Counted from the stretch's first letter, positions 12,001 to 36,000 are shown. The stretch is 64,000 nucleotides of DNA from an uncultured Pseudomonadota bacterium (GCA_963843375.1 CAWJKT010000011.1:192001-256000), one strand, 5' to 3'. Numbers: made by a program.

Positions 12001-15000
12001 CGGCCAATTCGTTTTTATCCAGCGAAAGGTTTATAAAGCCTTGGGTGGACACGAGATGGTCAAGAATGAGATCGTTGAGGACCTGAATTTCGGTAAGCAG
12101 GTCGTTCGAAAAGGCTATCGTTTGGTTTATGGTGACGGGTCGGATTTTTCCTTTTGCCGCATGTACACCAATGCGGGGGAAGTTTGGGAGGGATTTTCCA
12201 AAAATTTCTTCCCGGCTGTCGCTTTTTCGCCGGTTTATTTCATGAACGCATTTGTGGTTTTGATTTTGGACGGTGTACTGCCCTTCATCCTGGTCGCATT
12301 AGGGCCTTCCCTTCCATTGTTTTGGCCTGGGTTGGTAATGGCTTTGGTGTCTTTAGGTGTACGATGGCTCCAGGCCGTCAGGTATAACTACCATAAAGGC
12401 TCGGTTTTCTTTCATCCGTTGGGATGCTTGTTATTCGCTTTAATCGGATTGAATTCCATACGATGGTTTTGGTTTGGAGTTGGGCATTGGAAGGGAAGAG
12501 CCTTAAAACAAAAGATTTAACCGAGAATATGCCAATCCGAAGCTAAATCTTTGGGGGCGGGGTTTGCTTTTTTTTGGCGATTTCTTGTTGAACCAGTGAA
12601 ATCCATTCTTTTACGTCCTTCTTGGGTTGGGGCGGAGTGGGAATCAAGGGTCGAGGCGGGGTAGTCGGACCGGCGCCGGCCGTTCTCAACTTCTCCTTAG
12701 TTTTATCCACGTAGGTTTTTTGAAGATCTTCCAAAACTTCACGTAAAACTTTCTTTTCTTCGATGTTCAGGTTGCCTGACGTTTTTTTAATGAGTGAACC
12801 GATCATGTTGATCGTTATTCGGGCGCGGGGAAGGTTGAGATCCTTGTCCTTGTAATAGGGGTGCACCAATTCGCCTAAATCAATCTTGGCCGAAGAAGCC
12901 AGCGTGACGATCAGGTCGATAAAGTAATAATCGGTGGTTCCCCACTCGCGATTGTCTTTATATATTTGAGAATCTGCCATGGTTTTACCTAATCCCGTTC
13001 CCCGCTAATCATCCGCACCACGCGAATCCAAGCGTCCCATTCTGGCCCCAAGGATTCTTGAGAACGATGATAGTCTTGTTTATTCAGGAATTCATTTAAA
13101 TCTTGCAATAGGCAATCCAAGGCTTTTTTGCCTATTTCATGAAGTCTTTTCCTTTGAGAGGAATTCATTTTTTGGACGAGCGTCTTTTCTAAATGGGGGA
13201 GACAAAGAATGCCGTTCTCTCCAAATGCGATTCTTAGCTTTTCCGAACTTGACCAGCAAAGGGCGAATTCTTGGACGCAGGATCGATCCCGGTTTCTTTC
13301 TGACTCGCAAATGGGGCAGGGTTTGGACTTGTTTGATTTCCAGAAACGGGACGGGGTGGAAATTTCCTTCAAACCTTTTTCCAATAAACTTCCATAGATG
13401 ACGGCCATCCCCAGGGCTTGACGCTGGTGAACTCCCCACCAAGCGTGGCGGCGACAGAAACCCTTCGACTCGAAAAGGCGCCCCCGGGTGGAAGGATCGG
13501 TTACACATTCATCCAATAATGATTTCAGGTGTTCGTAAGCATAAGAGTGAACTAGAAAGCAAAGCGGACAACGATCAGGTTGGAGGATTTCGAGGTAGCG
13601 GTCCGGATCGGCGAAGGAGGGCATGAAATGGTTAGGAGCCCGGGAAAATCAGAAGATTTTTTTCGACCAAAAAGAGGGTTTGAGATCAGGCTCATCCTGA
13701 ATATGTTCTTTCAGCGCCGTGAAACCACTAACAGGTGAAAGGCCTCCCGAGGGAGGCATGGGCTGAGTTGGAGTATTAATTCTTTCCTGATTTTTGGACC
13801 AGAAATACCAACCAATTGCTCCTATTGCAAGAAGGACCAACAGCCACAAGAACCAATGGAAATGGCCTCTCGTTTGAACCGGAGTAGTTGTATCCATCGA
13901 AACTTGTGGAGTTGTTTGGGCGGCCATAGGTGAGGAAGAAGGGGTACCTACAATGACGGGGGTTTGGATACCGGGAACGGATTTAGCAATCTTTGCGGCG
14001 TGATGCACTCTGGAGCTTTTAGGTTTTTCGCCAGAGACGGTAGCCAAAGGTGTTTCTTCAGGATTTAAAACTGTCTCCGGAGCTTTTTCGCTTTTGACGT
14101 TATTTTTGCTGCCACAGGCAGGAAGGAAAGCCACGGCCATTGCCAAGAGAATTAAAAAAACCGCGTTTCGTTTGTAGGTGTTCAAAGGTGTCTCCGGGAT
14201 TTAGGTTGCTTCCTCACCACTTATTTTACCTGAGCTTAGACGGTCTTGAAAGGAAAAGAGAGGAACAGCCGTAAAATGAGTCAAGTTTAATGCACAGAAC
14301 TATAACTAGTGGTAGAGGTTAGTCTTGCGATCACCACAAAATACATGGCGGAGAGGGAGGGATTCGAACCCTCGAAAGGATGTTACTCCTTTAACGGTTT
14401 AGCAAACCGTCGCCTTCAGCCGCTCGGCCACCTCTCCACGTATTCAGCGTGATTTGAAAGTTAAAAATTTTGAGTTGAGGCTATGCTTGATTTTCGTTCA
14501 ATAAAACGAAAATGCCCGGATCTTAAAATTTTTATTTGTTTTAGTAATTGGCGGAGGGTGCAGGACTCGAACCTGCAAGGGGTTTCCCCCGGTGGATTTC
14601 AAGTCCACTGCCTTACCAATTAGGACTAACCCTCCATCTCCATTAAAACCTACGAAAACCGCGCCTCCAAACTACACACCGGCCATTTTGTTTTCCGGAA
14701 ATCGCTTCTTTGTCATAACCGTGTCATTGAACTGTCTGACACGCCTCAAGGCCTCTTTGCGGTCCTCCCGGTCGATCCTATCGTACCGGCGGAACACCGC
14801 GTGGGTCTTGTGGCCCGAAATGGACATAATGGTCGAGTCGCTTACTCCTGCCTTCCTGAAGTTCGTAACCGCGCAGTGCCGCAGATCATGGAAATGAAAG
14901 TCCGAGATATTAGCACGCTGGCACGCCCTGAGGAAAGCCGTTTTTGGATCTTTCAACCCGTGGCCCCGGAAGTTGAAGACGTAAGGACTGCCCAAAACCT

Positions 15001-33000: not shown

Positions 33001-36000
33001 ATTTTCTTGATTAGGAAAATAGCTGTTTTTAGGAAAGTTATCAAACCTTTAAAAAATGGTGACCACGGAACAACTAGGCTTTGTAAGAAAAACTACTATG
33101 TTTTTCTTACATGAAAACCAGTCGAAAAAAGAAGAAAGGCATTTCACAAACAGTCCACGGGCTACTTCTAACTCATTGAATGACACCGTTATGACAAGGG
33201 AAGAATTTTAATTGTGGTTTAAGGGTCAGACTCCGACCACAAGAGCACATCGACACCCCCGAAAATAAGGCTTTAAAAGTTCAGTGGACTTTTTGTCCAG
33301 TGGGCTTGTGTACAAGTCAAAATTGCCAAAGCCTTTAGAGTGTCATAACCGTGTCATTCATGACCATCATTTCGAGGTCTTGACCGTCAGGTGGGGAACT
33401 TGACCGTCAGGTACAAAAAAAGCCCTTGCCGTAAGGTCATTACTGGCAAAGGCTTTTAAAACGCGCTGAGAGCAACGAAATTTTTTGGAAAATGTCGGGA
33501 GTGCCCGGACCAAATTTCAAGTCCACTGCCTTACCAATTAGGACTAACCCTCCAACCGGCCCAATTGTACCTTTTTTCCGCCAGCCAAGTCAGGGGGCCA
33601 TATTGTACCCAAATTTCCAGGAGGAACAACCAATTTGACATTAAAGCTCTGTTTAACAATGGAAAAGGGTTTGGGCCAAAGTTCCCTAAAGAGGGGACAG
33701 GCAGGGGTACCAAAATTAACCCGCTATTCTATTTTTTTACCATCAGGGGAAAAATCATCGCTCTTGGACATATCGAAGCTGTAAATCCCAATAAATAAAC
33801 CGGATCGCCTCACCACTCGAATTCGGTCCAATTGATCTAACCGGGGGTAAACGGCTCTGACCGTCTGAATAACCTTTTGGTCCTCCGCCTGGCAATAATC
33901 CGTATCCTCAAATTTCTTTTTTTCCAGGAAACCGCTAACAATGAGTGTTTTCACCGTGTTGCCAGAATTTTTCCCAATGTTGAGCTTAATCTGGACGGAA
34001 GTTAAGTCGGTTGAGCGGGCGACAGCTTGCTGAGTTTTGAGAAGATCTACAAAGGACATCCCCATGTTTTTCAAGAAAGTATGAGAAGTAATAAAAATCA
34101 CCCCCAATGCGATCAAGGAACTCAGTATCCAAAGAAGGTAAGCGTTACGAACTCCTTCCGGGTTCCGTTCTTCTACGTTCATCAGTTCTTTCGTATAAGA
34201 TCCTTTTCGAACCACAATTGAACCTGCGATTAAATCATGGAGCCCCCTCTTCAAGGGATGGAACGGAATCATGAAAATGCAACCGAATAAAAGAATAATA
34301 ATGAAAGCCAAAAAAATGTAATCAACAATCTCTGAATCAGGAAATAACAAGCCGAGGACCGTTCCAAAGGAACTGTTGTACGCAATCAAAGCGATGAGGG
34401 TGTAACGCAAAAACGATTTGGGAAGACTCAAGTAACCTCCATCGAGCCTAAGAACTTGTATTTTAAGAATTTTTTTTGCCAAGCTTTGACCCTCTCCCAA
34501 AGAACTCTGAAGAAGACCTGTATAAAAAAAGGAAACAACCAACCCAACCCATAAACCATTTTGCCCCATAGCGTAAAAAATGCCCGAAAAGGGTAGACAT
34601 AAGACCGCCCCGAAAATAGCCAGGAAAAATGCGTCTATTATGTCCGAGAGCAATCTTTTCCAAAAGCCGACAACCACAGGCGTATCCAGCCTTTTCATTT
34701 TTTTCCTTAATTTTGGTTTAGAAGTTCATCCTGCAAAAGCGCCAACTTGCTTTTGGTTTATGTGATTGTAACCTTCGATCCAATTATCAGCTAACAATGC
34801 CCAACTTTCAGCCACTTCTTTCACGGGGTTTTATAGAAGTTTGGGGCAAAGCCCAAGGAGAAGGAAATGTGTCGAAGATGACGGAAGGTAGCCGGGGCTG
34901 GGGGAAGGTTGATAAAGGAAAGTTTGTTAGGAACCCCAATTGGGGGACCAATATTTAAGCCGGCTTAATTGGTAGCTATAAAATATTTTTCCGTCATAAA
35001 AGGGAAGCTCAAGCCAGGATCATCCGGGGGCGGCCCATCCGCCCCCGGATAGGACCTTTCTTACGGTCGATGGTCGTGGTAGTGATGATGGTAGGGGTGC
35101 CTGCGACAATAACGGCCCCAGGCCGCCCGGCTGTAATAATGCCCACCGTACCAGCAGTAGATGCCGGGACGGCCGGAAATCACCCGGAATCCCGGGAAGG
35201 CCACTGTGGCGGCCACCGGTGGGCCGTCAACGGCCACGACGACCTCCACGGCGGAGGCTGTACCGATAGTGCCAAATAAAACCAACAATCCCAAAACCAA
35301 AGTAAGCTTTTTCATTGTTTCCTCCTCGAAGGCTTATTTTGTCCTTCACTAGTTGAGACGAAAGAAGGGGCCCGAAGGGTTTCATGGGAAAATAAGGGTT
35401 TTTTATAAAATATTTCGGACCTATGCACTTGGCGAACCTTGTTCTAATGACGTATCTAGGCATTAGGCCGTTTCTTAATTACACAATAAGGCGATATCGT
35501 GTAATTAAGAATTTACTTAATAGAAGTTGATGCTTTAGATTTTTATGACATCCTTTAATAAGCGGGTTCGTTATTAAAGGATCAGGTTTTAACCTTTAAT
35601 AATATCCCTCGAAATAGAGGTGGGAAGCGGTTAGTAAATGATCAAGGCCGATCCAAGTTTGAAATCCAAAACGAGGTGGTGGAAATGAAAACCATTATTC
35701 ACAAGGTTAAATTTAAGGCTTCACCACAAGAAGTATTCAATTTATTCCTGGATTCAAAAAAACATTCCGAGGCAACGGGCGCTAAAGCCACCGCTAACCG
35801 CAAGATTGGCGGATCTTTTACGGCCTGGGACGGATATATCCGGGGGAAAAACCTGGCAATCATTCCCGGCCGTATGATCACCCAAGCCTGGAGGACCAGC
35901 GAGTTCAAAAATAGCGACCACGATTCGGTTTTGGTGCTGACTTTTGAGAAGGCACCCGGTGGAACCCTCATGACTATGACGCACACCGCCGTTCCAGATC

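Follow-up and report, generated by a model that had tools for sequence, protein, structure and literature searches.

An 18.9-kb element that very probably supplied the 5' half of a tRNA-Ser(TGA) gene in an uncultured soil bacterium

When an element sits inside a tRNA gene, which half of the gene did it bring and which belongs to the chromosome? The question is raised by an 18.9-kb island inside the tRNA-Ser(TGA) gene of an uncultured soil bacterium whose genome, a draft bin, has a completeness of 80% and a contamination of 4%. We have examined this locus in a window of 64,000 nucleotides (the whole stretch of DNA that was analysed), and we consider it very probable that the island is an integrative, probably mobilizable element whose tyrosine integrase used the gene's anticodon loop as the site for recombination with a circular attP, the element thereby supplying the 5' half. 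The target and the two ends of the island, in window positions, are:

14549-14635, minus strand: rebuilt tRNA-Ser(TGA) (ARAGORN)
14346-14437, minus strand: tRNA-Ser(GCT), chromosomal neighbour downstream of the target, outside the island (ARAGORN)
14596-14636: attR copy of a 41-nt identity block, tRNA nt -1 to 40 (100% identity, repeat search)
33514-33554: attL copy, nt -1 to 40 of tRNA-Ser(TGA) as a displaced 5' fragment of chromosomal origin (100% identity, repeat search and BLASTN)

A repeat search of 13500-35000 returned a single exact direct repeat, the 41 nt of 14596-14636 and 33514-33554, which on the minus strand consists of one upstream base and tRNA nt 1-40; the remaining four repeat families were 24-33 nt long and 73-79% identical. 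This is the 5'-half repeat that a first-pass annotation had placed at the far end. The two copies are spaced by 18,918 nt, and the 5' fragment (nt 1-40, 33514-33553, minus strand) sits 18.9 kb upstream of the rebuilt gene on the same strand. In the rebuilt gene nt 1-40 fall within the element-carried block and nt 41-87 are chromosomal. The anticodon loop CTTGAAA (nt 33-39, 14597-14603) is flanked by the stem dyad GTGGA / TCCAC, and the identity block ends at nt 40, one nucleotide beyond the loop, so the island would belong to the anticodon-loop ('A') class of attachment sites. As far as the sequence goes, the crossover may lie anywhere within the 41 nt.

The origin of the two halves can be read from sites that are empty. 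Four relatives of other genera have an unoccupied site (G006, G024, G012 and G013), and in all four the stretch preceding the intact tRNA-Ser(TGA) shares homology with the upstream flank of the displaced fragment and none with the spacer between integrase and tRNA. The fragment's upstream flank stands there directly before the intact gene, which is followed by tRNA-Ser(GCT); the Ser(TGA)-Ser(GCT) order was seen at the unoccupied sites L003, L006, L008 and L009. In the alignment the rebuilt gene matches the intact genes of G006, G024 and G012, and that of G013 differs in the variable arm. Because the displaced fragment has kept the native promoter flank, it is the element that supplies the 5' half, as the first-pass annotation had claimed. 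Among 41 genomes searched, 27 matched and 13 of these carried at least two copies of the 5' half; those of the 13 whose integrase-tRNA junction was read, six other genomes (G001, G004, G021 via L019, L020 and L022, G018, G005 and G009), share the layout of our island. The native flank precedes the intact tRNA at unoccupied sites and the fragment at occupied ones.

Next to the rebuilt tRNA lie:

14636-14671, minus strand: spacer of 36 nt between the integrase stop codon and the tRNA
14672-15775, minus strand: tyrosine integrase, 367 aa, intact (Pfam PF00589 Phage_integrase, 1.8e-26)
15772-16029, minus strand: excisionase-like HTH_17 protein, 85 aa (Pfam HTH_17, 2.3e-6; 28.2 bits, cut-off 27)

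Integrase and tRNA are on one strand, and the integrase stop codon precedes tRNA nt 1 by 36 nt. PDB matches relate the catalytic domain to those of lambda Int and HP1 Int, and in a profile alignment residues 79-340 correspond to lambda Int 85-345. Residues R210, K237, H296, R299, H322 and Y331 are invariant across six integrase paralogues of the genome and, by their position in the lambda alignment, are candidates for the catalytic set R-K-H-R-H-Y. In lambda-type heterobivalent integrases an N-terminal domain binds arm-type sites that flank the core; HP1 is an integrator at the anticodon loop. Where lambda has this domain, 78 aa are left over in our integrase, and they matched no family in Pfam or NCBIfam, known arm-binding families included. 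The excisionase gene is directly upstream and overlaps the integrase start by 4 nt. Its product, whose match to the NCBIfam model 'excise' (23.4 bits) is under the cut-off of 28.8, is a putative recombination directionality factor. A 'suicidal' integrase of the SSV/pTN3 type was considered and rejected, the reading frame being whole (367 aa), ending 36 nt before the tRNA and not split.

Does the DNA on both sides of the core look like an attachment site? The elements in question are:

14711-14728, minus strand: putative arm-type site AATGACACGGTTATGACA, within the last codons of the integrase (…NDTVMT…)
33179-33196, plus strand: arm motif, inverted copy (AATGACACCGTTATGACA)
33340-33358, minus strand: arm motif, direct copy (AATGACACGGTTATGACAC), 156 nt from the identity block on the island side
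33379-33410, minus strand: two direct repeats CTGACGGTCAAG, 20 nt apart
33415-33453, minus strand: intrinsic-terminator-like hairpin, 13 + 4 pairs with one bulge, then seven T
33564-33593, minus strand: native tRNA-Ser(TGA) promoter CTGACT-18-TACAAT, stranded before the 5' fragment (promoter scan)

The order of promoter flank, fragment, terminator hairpin and arm motif was common to all seven far ends that we aligned, and each of the six other genomes has the hairpin after the fragment as well as repeated arm motifs. The arm motif is bipartite, and its copy at the integrase end co-varies with the far-end copy. The direct copy occupies a position common to 7/7 far ends, as ATGACAC in five and as an AGGAC variant in two, and the integrase 3' ends match (ATGACAC in five elements, AGGAC(T/A)C in two); G041 has GAATGACAACC(A/T)TATGACAAGTG at both ends. 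The inverted copy recurs at equal distance in the Ser-CGA island of the same genome. The number of ATGACAC matches in the whole window, seven, was reached in 6 of 100 shuffles, so that the count alone is not far above chance, and the motif in the integrase gene may owe its conservation to the protein tail and not to a role as a DNA site. Repeated on both sides of the core and co-varying, these motifs are putative arm-type sites to which the integrase may bind. The CTGACGGTCAAG repeats, which G001, G004 and G005 keep in part at their far ends as TGACGGTC, are candidate sites for the excisionase or an accessory protein. The hairpin appears in both MFE and centroid folds and faces the orphaned tRNA promoter; a simple terminator scan did not call it. 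Hairpin and T-run are in place in each of the seven far ends, where both sides of the stem carry changes, and also in the Ser-CGA and Arg-TCG islands. A promoter scan of the 36-nt spacer gave no convincing sigma-70-type promoter: the best hexamer pair, TGGAGG-16-TTTAAT, agrees at 8/12 positions, and its candidate -10 positions are not kept across eight related spacers.

We propose that attP in the circle would run from the integrase 3' end, with an arm-type site in its last codons, through the 36-nt spacer to the copy of tRNA nt 1-40. The crossover would fall in the 7-nt anticodon loop, to be followed by about 60 nt, the terminator hairpin, the two short direct repeats and finally the direct and inverted arm-type sites. 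Integration would join the 5' half brought by the element to the 3' half of the chromosome and so place a working tRNA just downstream of the integrase, while the original 5' half and its promoter would be pushed 18.9 kb upstream. Transcription of the rebuilt tRNA would then have to start in element DNA, by read-through of the excisionase and integrase genes or at an unrecognised promoter, and the element's terminator would stop transcription coming from the orphaned native promoter. The integrase together with the HTH_17 excisionase would reverse the reaction.

Between these ends lie a conserved backbone and a cargo:

16026-19391, minus strand: conserved backbone, whole
16026-16505, minus strand: orf159 (backbone)
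16409-17278, minus strand: orf289 (backbone), Replic_Relax-like as a lead only
17262-19058, minus strand: type IV coupling protein (backbone; TraG-D_C 1.4e-12, TrwB_AAD_bind 7.7e-10, above Pfam cut-offs)
19119-19391, minus strand: orf90 (backbone), weak ribbon-helix-helix (RHH_1, E 0.021)
19526-24901, mixed strands: defence cargo block (Pfam and PADLOC)
19526-20257, minus strand: HNH
20274-20663, minus strand: Vsr
20653-21336, minus strand: HhH-GPD glycosylase
21436-22095, plus strand: HNH type II restriction-like
22129-23145, minus strand: C5 cytosine methylase
23216-24901, minus strand: GmrSD-like
25028-25519, minus strand: RadC (Pfam)
25893-26519, plus strand: ECF sigma factor (Pfam)
26519-29029, plus strand: three ORFs, family unassigned
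29150-32891, minus strand: block of orf124, kinase and AbiE (Pfam and PADLOC)
29530-31158, minus strand: Ser/Thr kinase
31186-32100, minus strand: AbiEii
32511-32891, minus strand: AbiEi, apparently broken, with the N-terminal 126 aa alone in frame

Pfam and PADLOC found the cargo that had been listed before (Dcm/Vsr/HNH, GmrSD-like, AbiE and kinase genes). In addition, orf264 matched PADLOC PDC-M19A (2.3e-14), phrog_14939 (function unassigned) was matched within 25028-29029, and stop codons occur in 32100-32520. RadC recurs in other islands of the same genome. The backbone genes adjoin integrases of all three layouts met in the related loci. The coupling protein also resembles the VirD4-like CD1115 family (4.7e-23, below the family cut-off). 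No match to orf289 was obtained in Pfam, NCBIfam or PHROG; in 23 of its 30 atlas matches the cluster has PF13814 on 17-29% of its members, and its AlphaFold model has a mean pLDDT of 51. Among the 21 ORFs of the island Pfam detected no transposase family and no VirB4-like or other T4SS family, and neither Pfam nor NCBIfam a recognised relaxase, so any transfer would need a helper. With an integration/excision module, a coupling protein that may serve mobilisation, a possible replication-relaxation protein and no type IV secretion apparatus, the island resembles integrative mobilizable elements, although its relaxase, for which orf289 is a lead, is putative.

Could the island be a fixed relic, which arrived as we propose, lost the ability to excise and is now a defence island anchored at a tRNA? 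The apparently broken AbiEi and the lack of T4SS genes and a recognised relaxase speak for this. However, the integrase and excisionase frames are intact with the catalytic candidates conserved, the two att copies agree at all 41 nt, and the arm motifs and terminator are intact. Moreover, G001, a genome of the same genus, has a related element with different cargo at this tRNA-Ser(TGA) site, a sign of recent turnover. We regard a relic as possible, and as the less likely state of this island. It may be, alternatively, that a backbone element of about 4.8 kb (integrase to orf90) accreted unrelated cargo or older elements at one site and that the whole moves as one, if at all. Wide sharing with related loci is indeed limited to the backbone: no cargo gene, those of the defence block (19526-24901) included, had a match at any other Ser(TGA) locus compared, and the cargo matches in related loci are RadC and, weakly (28-48% identity), HNH243, Vsr and Dcm in L060 and L091. 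The recurrence of RadC in other islands of the genome speaks for a composite too, as do the tandem stacks with six 3' fragments that BLASTN showed at its tRNA-Val. Against such a composite, repeat search and BLASTN revealed no internal copy of a tRNA half or att block between 14636 and 33514, and the far end bears the family's own terminator and arm motifs, which argues that the present ends belong to one attP; we think it unlikely. A chance repeat or a mis-join in the bin, without any 5'-side insertion, is extremely improbable. A draft bin with 4% contamination and a contig G+C of 43 to 58% would permit one, but the exact 41-nt repeat of a gene end lies on the correct side and in the correct orientation, the same anatomy with conserved native flank occurs in six other genomes, and five runs from two studies contain 63-85% of the sampled words of 13801-23800 (the best run may be the source sample).

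An element that brings the 5' half of its tRNA is rare but already catalogued, as the first-pass annotation had noted: the Islander database holds 159 islands with a displaced 5' fragment among 3919 (Hudson et al. 2015, PMC4383910). Our island is of that class: upstream of an intact tRNA it has a 5' fragment in the same orientation, it contains a tyrosine integrase, its length falls in the range of 2-200 kb and its identity block ends at the anticodon loop, and in addition the fragment's flank is that of the native gene at four empty sites. In the accessible part of that paper the class is given as a count only; to this we add, for a host from an uncultured candidate division, the parts of attP, the flank with the native promoter and the changes of side within one integrase family. 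In the Thermococcales, 41 bp from a tRNA gene's 5' half are common to attP and attB of pTN3 / TKV4 (Cossu et al. 2017, PMC5495485), the minimal site of pTN3 being tRNA-Leu nt 2-44, and the rebuilt tRNA is likewise severed from its own promoter downstream of integrase DNA (PMC5495485; review PMC8371274). That system is archaeal, its 'suicidal' SSV-type integrase gene contains attP and splits on integration, and according to the available text it needs no excisionase in vitro (PMC5495485), whereas our bacterial island has an excisionase gene and a whole integrase gene, with only an arm-type motif overlapping its last codons. Panis et al. (2010, PMC2951348) counted integrase-tRNA shapes, with STI at 736 and OC at 438 of 1273 and SIT and OD together below 8%; ours is SIT-like, the integrase preceding the adjacent tRNA in the same orientation, although their counts, in the portion accessible, do not state which half is supplied. 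Finally, the island resembles the lambda/HP1 type in its related catalytic domain, in the repeated motifs that flank the core and in its small upstream HTH excisionase gene, but differs in its unmatched N-terminal 78 aa, in motifs that are putative as binding sites and in the 5' half it carries.

Is the half that is carried a fixed property of the integrase? By tblastn the six paralogues lie where the first-pass annotation had them, full-length and 58-64% identical to the window's integrase, and excisionase homologues adjoin 5/6. The spacers of the three 5'-side islands measure 36, 45 and 35 nt. BLASTN of all 46 ARAGORN tRNAs against the genome again gave Arg-TCG nt 1-43 at C8:171778-171820, Ser-CGA nt 1-41 at C11:56410-56450 and Asp nt 34-78 at C6:219971-220015. 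The sister islands described as ordinary 3'-side insertions are indeed on the 3' side, but they have two layouts and not a single ordinary one: in the C6 Asp island the integrase is convergent with the rebuilt tRNA, and in the C8 CAU and C9 Thr-TGT islands it is co-directional and adjoins the displaced 3' fragment. The claim that one integrase family uses both sides of the tRNA is borne out by 55 close integrase loci, of which 10 supply the 5' half, 25 have the integrase next to the displaced fragment and supply the 3' half, and 13 are convergent (7 were left unclassified). A single origin of the 5'-supplying type was rejected (AU p 0.0008). In relatives that supply the 3' half the identity block begins at nt 26-34, and in those that supply the 5' half it runs to nt 38-43, so that the two kinds have only the loop in common. 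At tRNA-Thr(CGT) of G041 elements of both kinds occupy one anticodon loop, the tRNA being wholly element DNA.

Perhaps the carried half changes easily in this candidate-division lineage, even between sister integrases at the same tRNA; both kinds can fill one loop from two sides; and the 5'-type element takes over transcription of a probably single-copy tRNA. In that case purifying selection would act on the integrase end as a 'hostage' resisting decay, and the orphaned native promoter would make a short RNA in the integrated state only, ended by the element's terminator. Taken jointly, these proposals are doubtful. Two smaller observations concern contig C8: the Rfam-only tRNA row at C8:171778-171851 is present with 33.7 bits, and the tRNA(CAU) gene is missed by ARAGORN because a group I intron interrupts it.

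The island is bounded by two copies of a 41-nt block (14596-14636 = 33514-33554), which a repeat search returned as the sole long exact direct repeat in 13500-35000; the remaining four repeat families of this region are 24-33 nt long, with 73-79% identity. Read on the tRNA strand, the block is made up of one upstream base and nt 1-40 of tRNA-Ser(TGA), one of the two tRNA genes, both on the minus strand, that ARAGORN counts in the window. The anticodon loop CTTGAAA, flanked by the stem halves GTGGA and TCCAC, occupies nt 33-39, so the identity ends one base beyond it. A 36-nt spacer separates the end of the integrase gene from nt 1 of the tRNA, which follows it on the same strand. 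The first-pass annotation had described a 5'-half copy of tRNA-Ser(TGA) displaced to the far end of the island and an integrase upstream of, and co-directional with, the rebuilt tRNA, and the exact repeat of nt 1-40 and the position of the integrase bear out both statements. The features are:

14346-14437, minus strand, tRNA-Ser(gct) (ARAGORN)
14549-14635, minus strand, tRNA-Ser(tga) (ARAGORN)
14672-15775, minus strand, tyrosine integrase, 367 aa (PF00589, 1.8e-26)
14728-14711, motif AATGACACGGTTATGACA, within the last integrase codons, coding …NDTVMT…
15772-16029, minus strand, HTH_17 excisionase-like gene, 85 aa, overlapping the integrase start
31186-32100, AbiEii, intact
33179-33196, motif AATGACACGGTTATGACA, inverted
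33358-33340, motif AATGACACGGTTATGACA, direct, 156 nt inside the far end
33453-33415, hairpin facing the native tRNA promoter stranded at the far end, recovered by MFE and centroid folding alike
33593-33564, promoter CTGACT-18-TACAAT, upstream of the displaced fragment (promoter scan)

Which half of the tRNA gene is element DNA? We searched 41 related genomes with the displaced fragment and its outer flank as the query. In four of them (G006, G024, G012 and G013) the match covers about 80 nt of the flank and continues into an intact tRNA-Ser(TGA); tRNA-Ser(GCT) comes next. In the alignment this flank, including the boxes GGGTACAATATG…CCCCCTGAC…GGTACAATTGG, is common to the empty sites and the fragment side of the window and is not shared by the integrase side; 33514-33553 is therefore the original 5' half with its native promoter. 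Judged from these sequences, the 5' half now joined to the tRNA-Ser(TGA) gene is the one that arrived with the element, and the four empty sites bearing the fragment's flank thus support the earlier proposal that the element supplies this half. The rebuilt tRNA-Ser(TGA) is identical in sequence to the intact genes of G006, G024 and G012. For the other two 5'-type islands of this genome, those at tRNA-Ser(CGA) and tRNA-Arg(TCG), the search for empty sites in relatives gave matches limited to the tRNA half plus a few bases; in G001, of the same genus, each half is present twice, with spacings of 20 and 37 kb. C11:56451-56615, which directly borders the displaced Ser-CGA fragment on its outer side, shares 87% identity with the RadC region of the window's island (25196-25360) and with that of the island on C8, so the Ser-CGA island adjoins other mobile DNA and not native flank. 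A 3' fragment of tRNA-Leu(CAA) was also seen, at C11:58824-58871.

The arrangement recurs in other genomes. The 5' half of tRNA-Ser(TGA) is matched by 27 of the searched genomes and is present in at least two copies in 13 of these (this genome, G000, and G001, G002, G004, G005, G007, G009, G010, G015, G018, G021, G025 and G034). Inspected integrase-tRNA junctions have the same layout as in the window at loci L019-L022 and L050 and in G018, G005, G009 and G004; loci from the one-genome-per-species scan and genomes with G handles may overlap, and their counts are not summed. We aligned seven far ends (the window, G004, G001, G009, G018, G021 and G005), and all seven present the same order: native flank, tRNA fragment (nt 1-39 or 1-40), about 60 nt, hairpin with T-run, TGACGG-type repeats and bipartite motif. 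Three genera (L005:1580-1604, with L105 and L106 at the same place) carry 20-40 additional bases (…GGTTCGA…CACCAC…) that separate the displaced tRNA-Ser(TGA) fragment from the native promoter and that neither the window nor the aligned empty sites contain.

Motif AATGACACGGTTATGACA has three sites in the window's island. The short direct repeats CTGACGGTCAAG belong, alongside the loop and the three arm motifs, to the putative attP parts of the element. The Ser-CGA and Arg-TCG islands, which the first-pass annotation listed with this one as 5'-side islands, share this layout: in each, a hairpin and T-run lie between about +100 and +165, and the motif between about +197 and +231; the Ser-CGA island has an additional inverted copy at about +384. 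The motif co-varies between the integrase 3' end and the far end, being ATGACAC at both in five elements, AGGACTCCTATAGGACAC at both in G018 and AGGAC(T/A)C at both in G005. A lambda-like integrase would have arm-type sites of this appearance, and we infer binding by this analogy. In a profile of the six paralogues, integrase residues 79-340 align with lambda Int 85-345, which leaves over an N-terminal domain of 78 aa that matched no known family.

The stem of the hairpin varies across genera with changes on both sides in the far-end alignment, and its presumed role would be to end transcription from the orphaned native promoter. A consensus scan of the 36-nt spacer between integrase and tRNA found no promoter. 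The hexamer score of this spacer is 8/12, that of the other two 5'-type spacers 7-8/12 and that of 46 native tRNA upstream regions 5-11/12, a scoring without power to tell spacers from native regions; the candidate -10 positions in the spacer differ among relatives. Contigs of five DNA runs contain 63-85% of the sampled words of the 10 kb at 13801-23800, and no RNA run containing this stretch was among the matches listed.

Six paralogues of the integrase, 58-64% identical, were found in this genome by tblastn, and a scan of one genome per species gave 74 loci, the close ones coming almost entirely from bins that bear the title candidate division FCPU426. We classified the layout of the 55 close integrases (at least 54% identity) for which the 3' end and downstream DNA were present. 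A full co-directional tRNA, meaning that the element supplies the 5' half, follows the integrase in 10 of the 55 (Ser-TGA 5, Ser-CGA 2, Thr-CGT 2, Arg-TCG 1). In 25 it is followed by a co-directional 3' fragment starting at nt 26-34, the 3' half then being supplied by the opposite end of the element; at L071, a locus of this class, a full tRNA-Asp lies 9.7 kb upstream. Thirteen are convergent (11 with a full tRNA, two with a 3' fragment) and seven unclear, and all nine distant relatives used as the outgroup (28-41% identity, other phyla) are convergent. The claim that one integrase family works on both sides of tRNA genes is thus upheld among close integrases. On a tree of 70 rows, three changes account for the 5' type, with starred branches forcing at least two of them, and nine are required for the co-directional 3' type. 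Constraining the 13 5'-type rows together cost 85 log-likelihood units (AU p 0.0008), for a group that was named post hoc, after inspection of the tree, although geometry is what defines it. With support 99, the Thr-CGT 3'-type integrase of L070 is the sister of the Thr-CGT 5'-type pair. The close integrases target at least 12 named tRNAs (plus two '-like') in three layouts, and elements of all three have in common a backbone of orf90, coupling protein, orf289, orf159, excisionase and integrase; the defence cargo of the window's island is not shared in this way.

The Thr-CGT pair leads to a further arrangement. G041, which holds both L041 and L070, has two copies of the Thr-CGT 5' half. One stands alone as a fragment in the far-end layout of the 5' type, and the other is part of a full tRNA adjoining the L041 integrase, with a terminator and the motif GAATGACAACCTTATGACAAGTG downstream; the counterpart of this motif is at the 3' end of the L070 integrase, not of the L041 one. 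The tRNA-Thr(CGT) of G041 (L041:11127-11700, L115:1200-1560 and L070:11000-11222) thus appears to be occupied by elements with sister integrases from both sides, one per half, and the working tRNA is probably composed of two element-supplied halves, a reading that joins contigs unjoined in the assembly.

By the textbook rule, it is the 3' part of the gene that a tRNA-targeting element brings along, and the tRNA thereby keeps its own promoter. Table 1 of Islander counts 159 islands with a 5' tDNA fragment (~4%) vs 3760 with a 3' fragment (PMC4383910), and Panis et al. define four integrase-tRNA shapes, of which 'SIT' and 'OD' jointly account for <8% of 1273 (PMC2951348). A review of archaeal recombinases states that the recombinant tRNA in bacteria retains its original promoter with very few exceptions, that pTN3-like integrases use the 5' half, the tRNA being expressed from the integrase promoter, and that this situation is seldom met in bacteria (PMC8371274). 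For pTN3 itself, Cossu et al. give a 41-bp shared stretch and a minimal site of nt 2-44 (PMC5495485). Since such islands are catalogued, the shapes defined and pTN3 described, the kind is already known; unlike the pTN3-like elements, that of the window has an intact integrase, not a split one. The window's island is a well-resolved bacterial 5'-type member from an uncultured division, and the portions of the literature available to us contained no detailed description of a bacterial 5'-side island. Nor did they contain a statement on side changes within one integrase family, a point for which no dedicated search was made; by sequence comparison, the present family adds evidence for such changes. 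The lineage offers natural comparisons (related integrases, many tRNA targets, empty sites and conserved attP parts), which make two questions testable: how the repaired side switches and how the tRNA is subsequently transcribed. The practical value is modest, namely better rules for island ends and related integrase/att pairs for engineering.

The window also provides one further defence island from an uncultured soil phylum. In its cargo a cytosine methylase is accompanied by an HNH restriction-like gene, Vsr, an HhH-GPD glycosylase and a second HNH protein; the other genes encode a GmrSD-like enzyme, RadC, an ECF sigma factor together with three unknown ORFs, AbiEii and a Ser/Thr kinase of the type associated with defence. 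The AbiEi antitoxin gene (32100-32891) appears to be broken: only its N-terminal 126 aa are in frame, with in-frame stop codons up to the AbiEii start. The coupling protein scores above the Pfam cut-offs. Profile searches gave no family match for orf289, whose AlphaFold2 model (13 sequences) has a mean pLDDT of 51, exceeding 70 in the N-terminal winged-helix-like part only; its resemblance to clusters partly carrying Replic_Relax is a lead only. No mating-pore genes were found in the island, and the element is best called a candidate mobilizable element.

A group I intron of about 222 nt (Rfam RF00028, 73 bits) interrupts the tRNA(CAU) of the sixth integrase (C8:101739-102037; L013:17739-18037, minus strand) directly after the anticodon (…CTCAT, intron, AATGCC…); ARAGORN missed this tRNA. 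The displaced fragment beside the integrase has the intron-less loop CTCATAA, so either the intron entered later than the island or the element was modelled on an intron-less allele. That this locus is the end of a tmRNA was rejected, as ARAGORN finds no tmRNA and Rfam gives the intron. A second tRNA-Ser(tga) (C18:62502-62591, 90 nt), different in sequence and on a contig of 53% G+C, was not found in five near-complete relatives, a weak result without a positive control; the contig that carries it may be a contaminant in the bin. Contig C4 has a G+C content of 56%, most contigs having about 50%. In its stretch 48051-90542, downstream of the tRNA-Val(CAC) gene, nt 30-75 of that gene are repeated six times (one copy is nt 30-69), and an integrase of 30% identity lies at C4:33278-34018; the copies mark islands stacked in tandem. 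Just upstream of tRNA-Arg(ACG), at C11:457659-457798, tblastn gave two short matches to aa 13-59 of the integrase N-terminus, probably what is left of a decayed integrase at this other tRNA. A 33-nt G-rich repeat, AAAGGGTTTGGGGCAAGGCCCC…, with 73-76% identity to the reference copy, occurs once within the window's island (29437-29469) and twice in the chromosomal flank (33664-33696 and 34834-34866).
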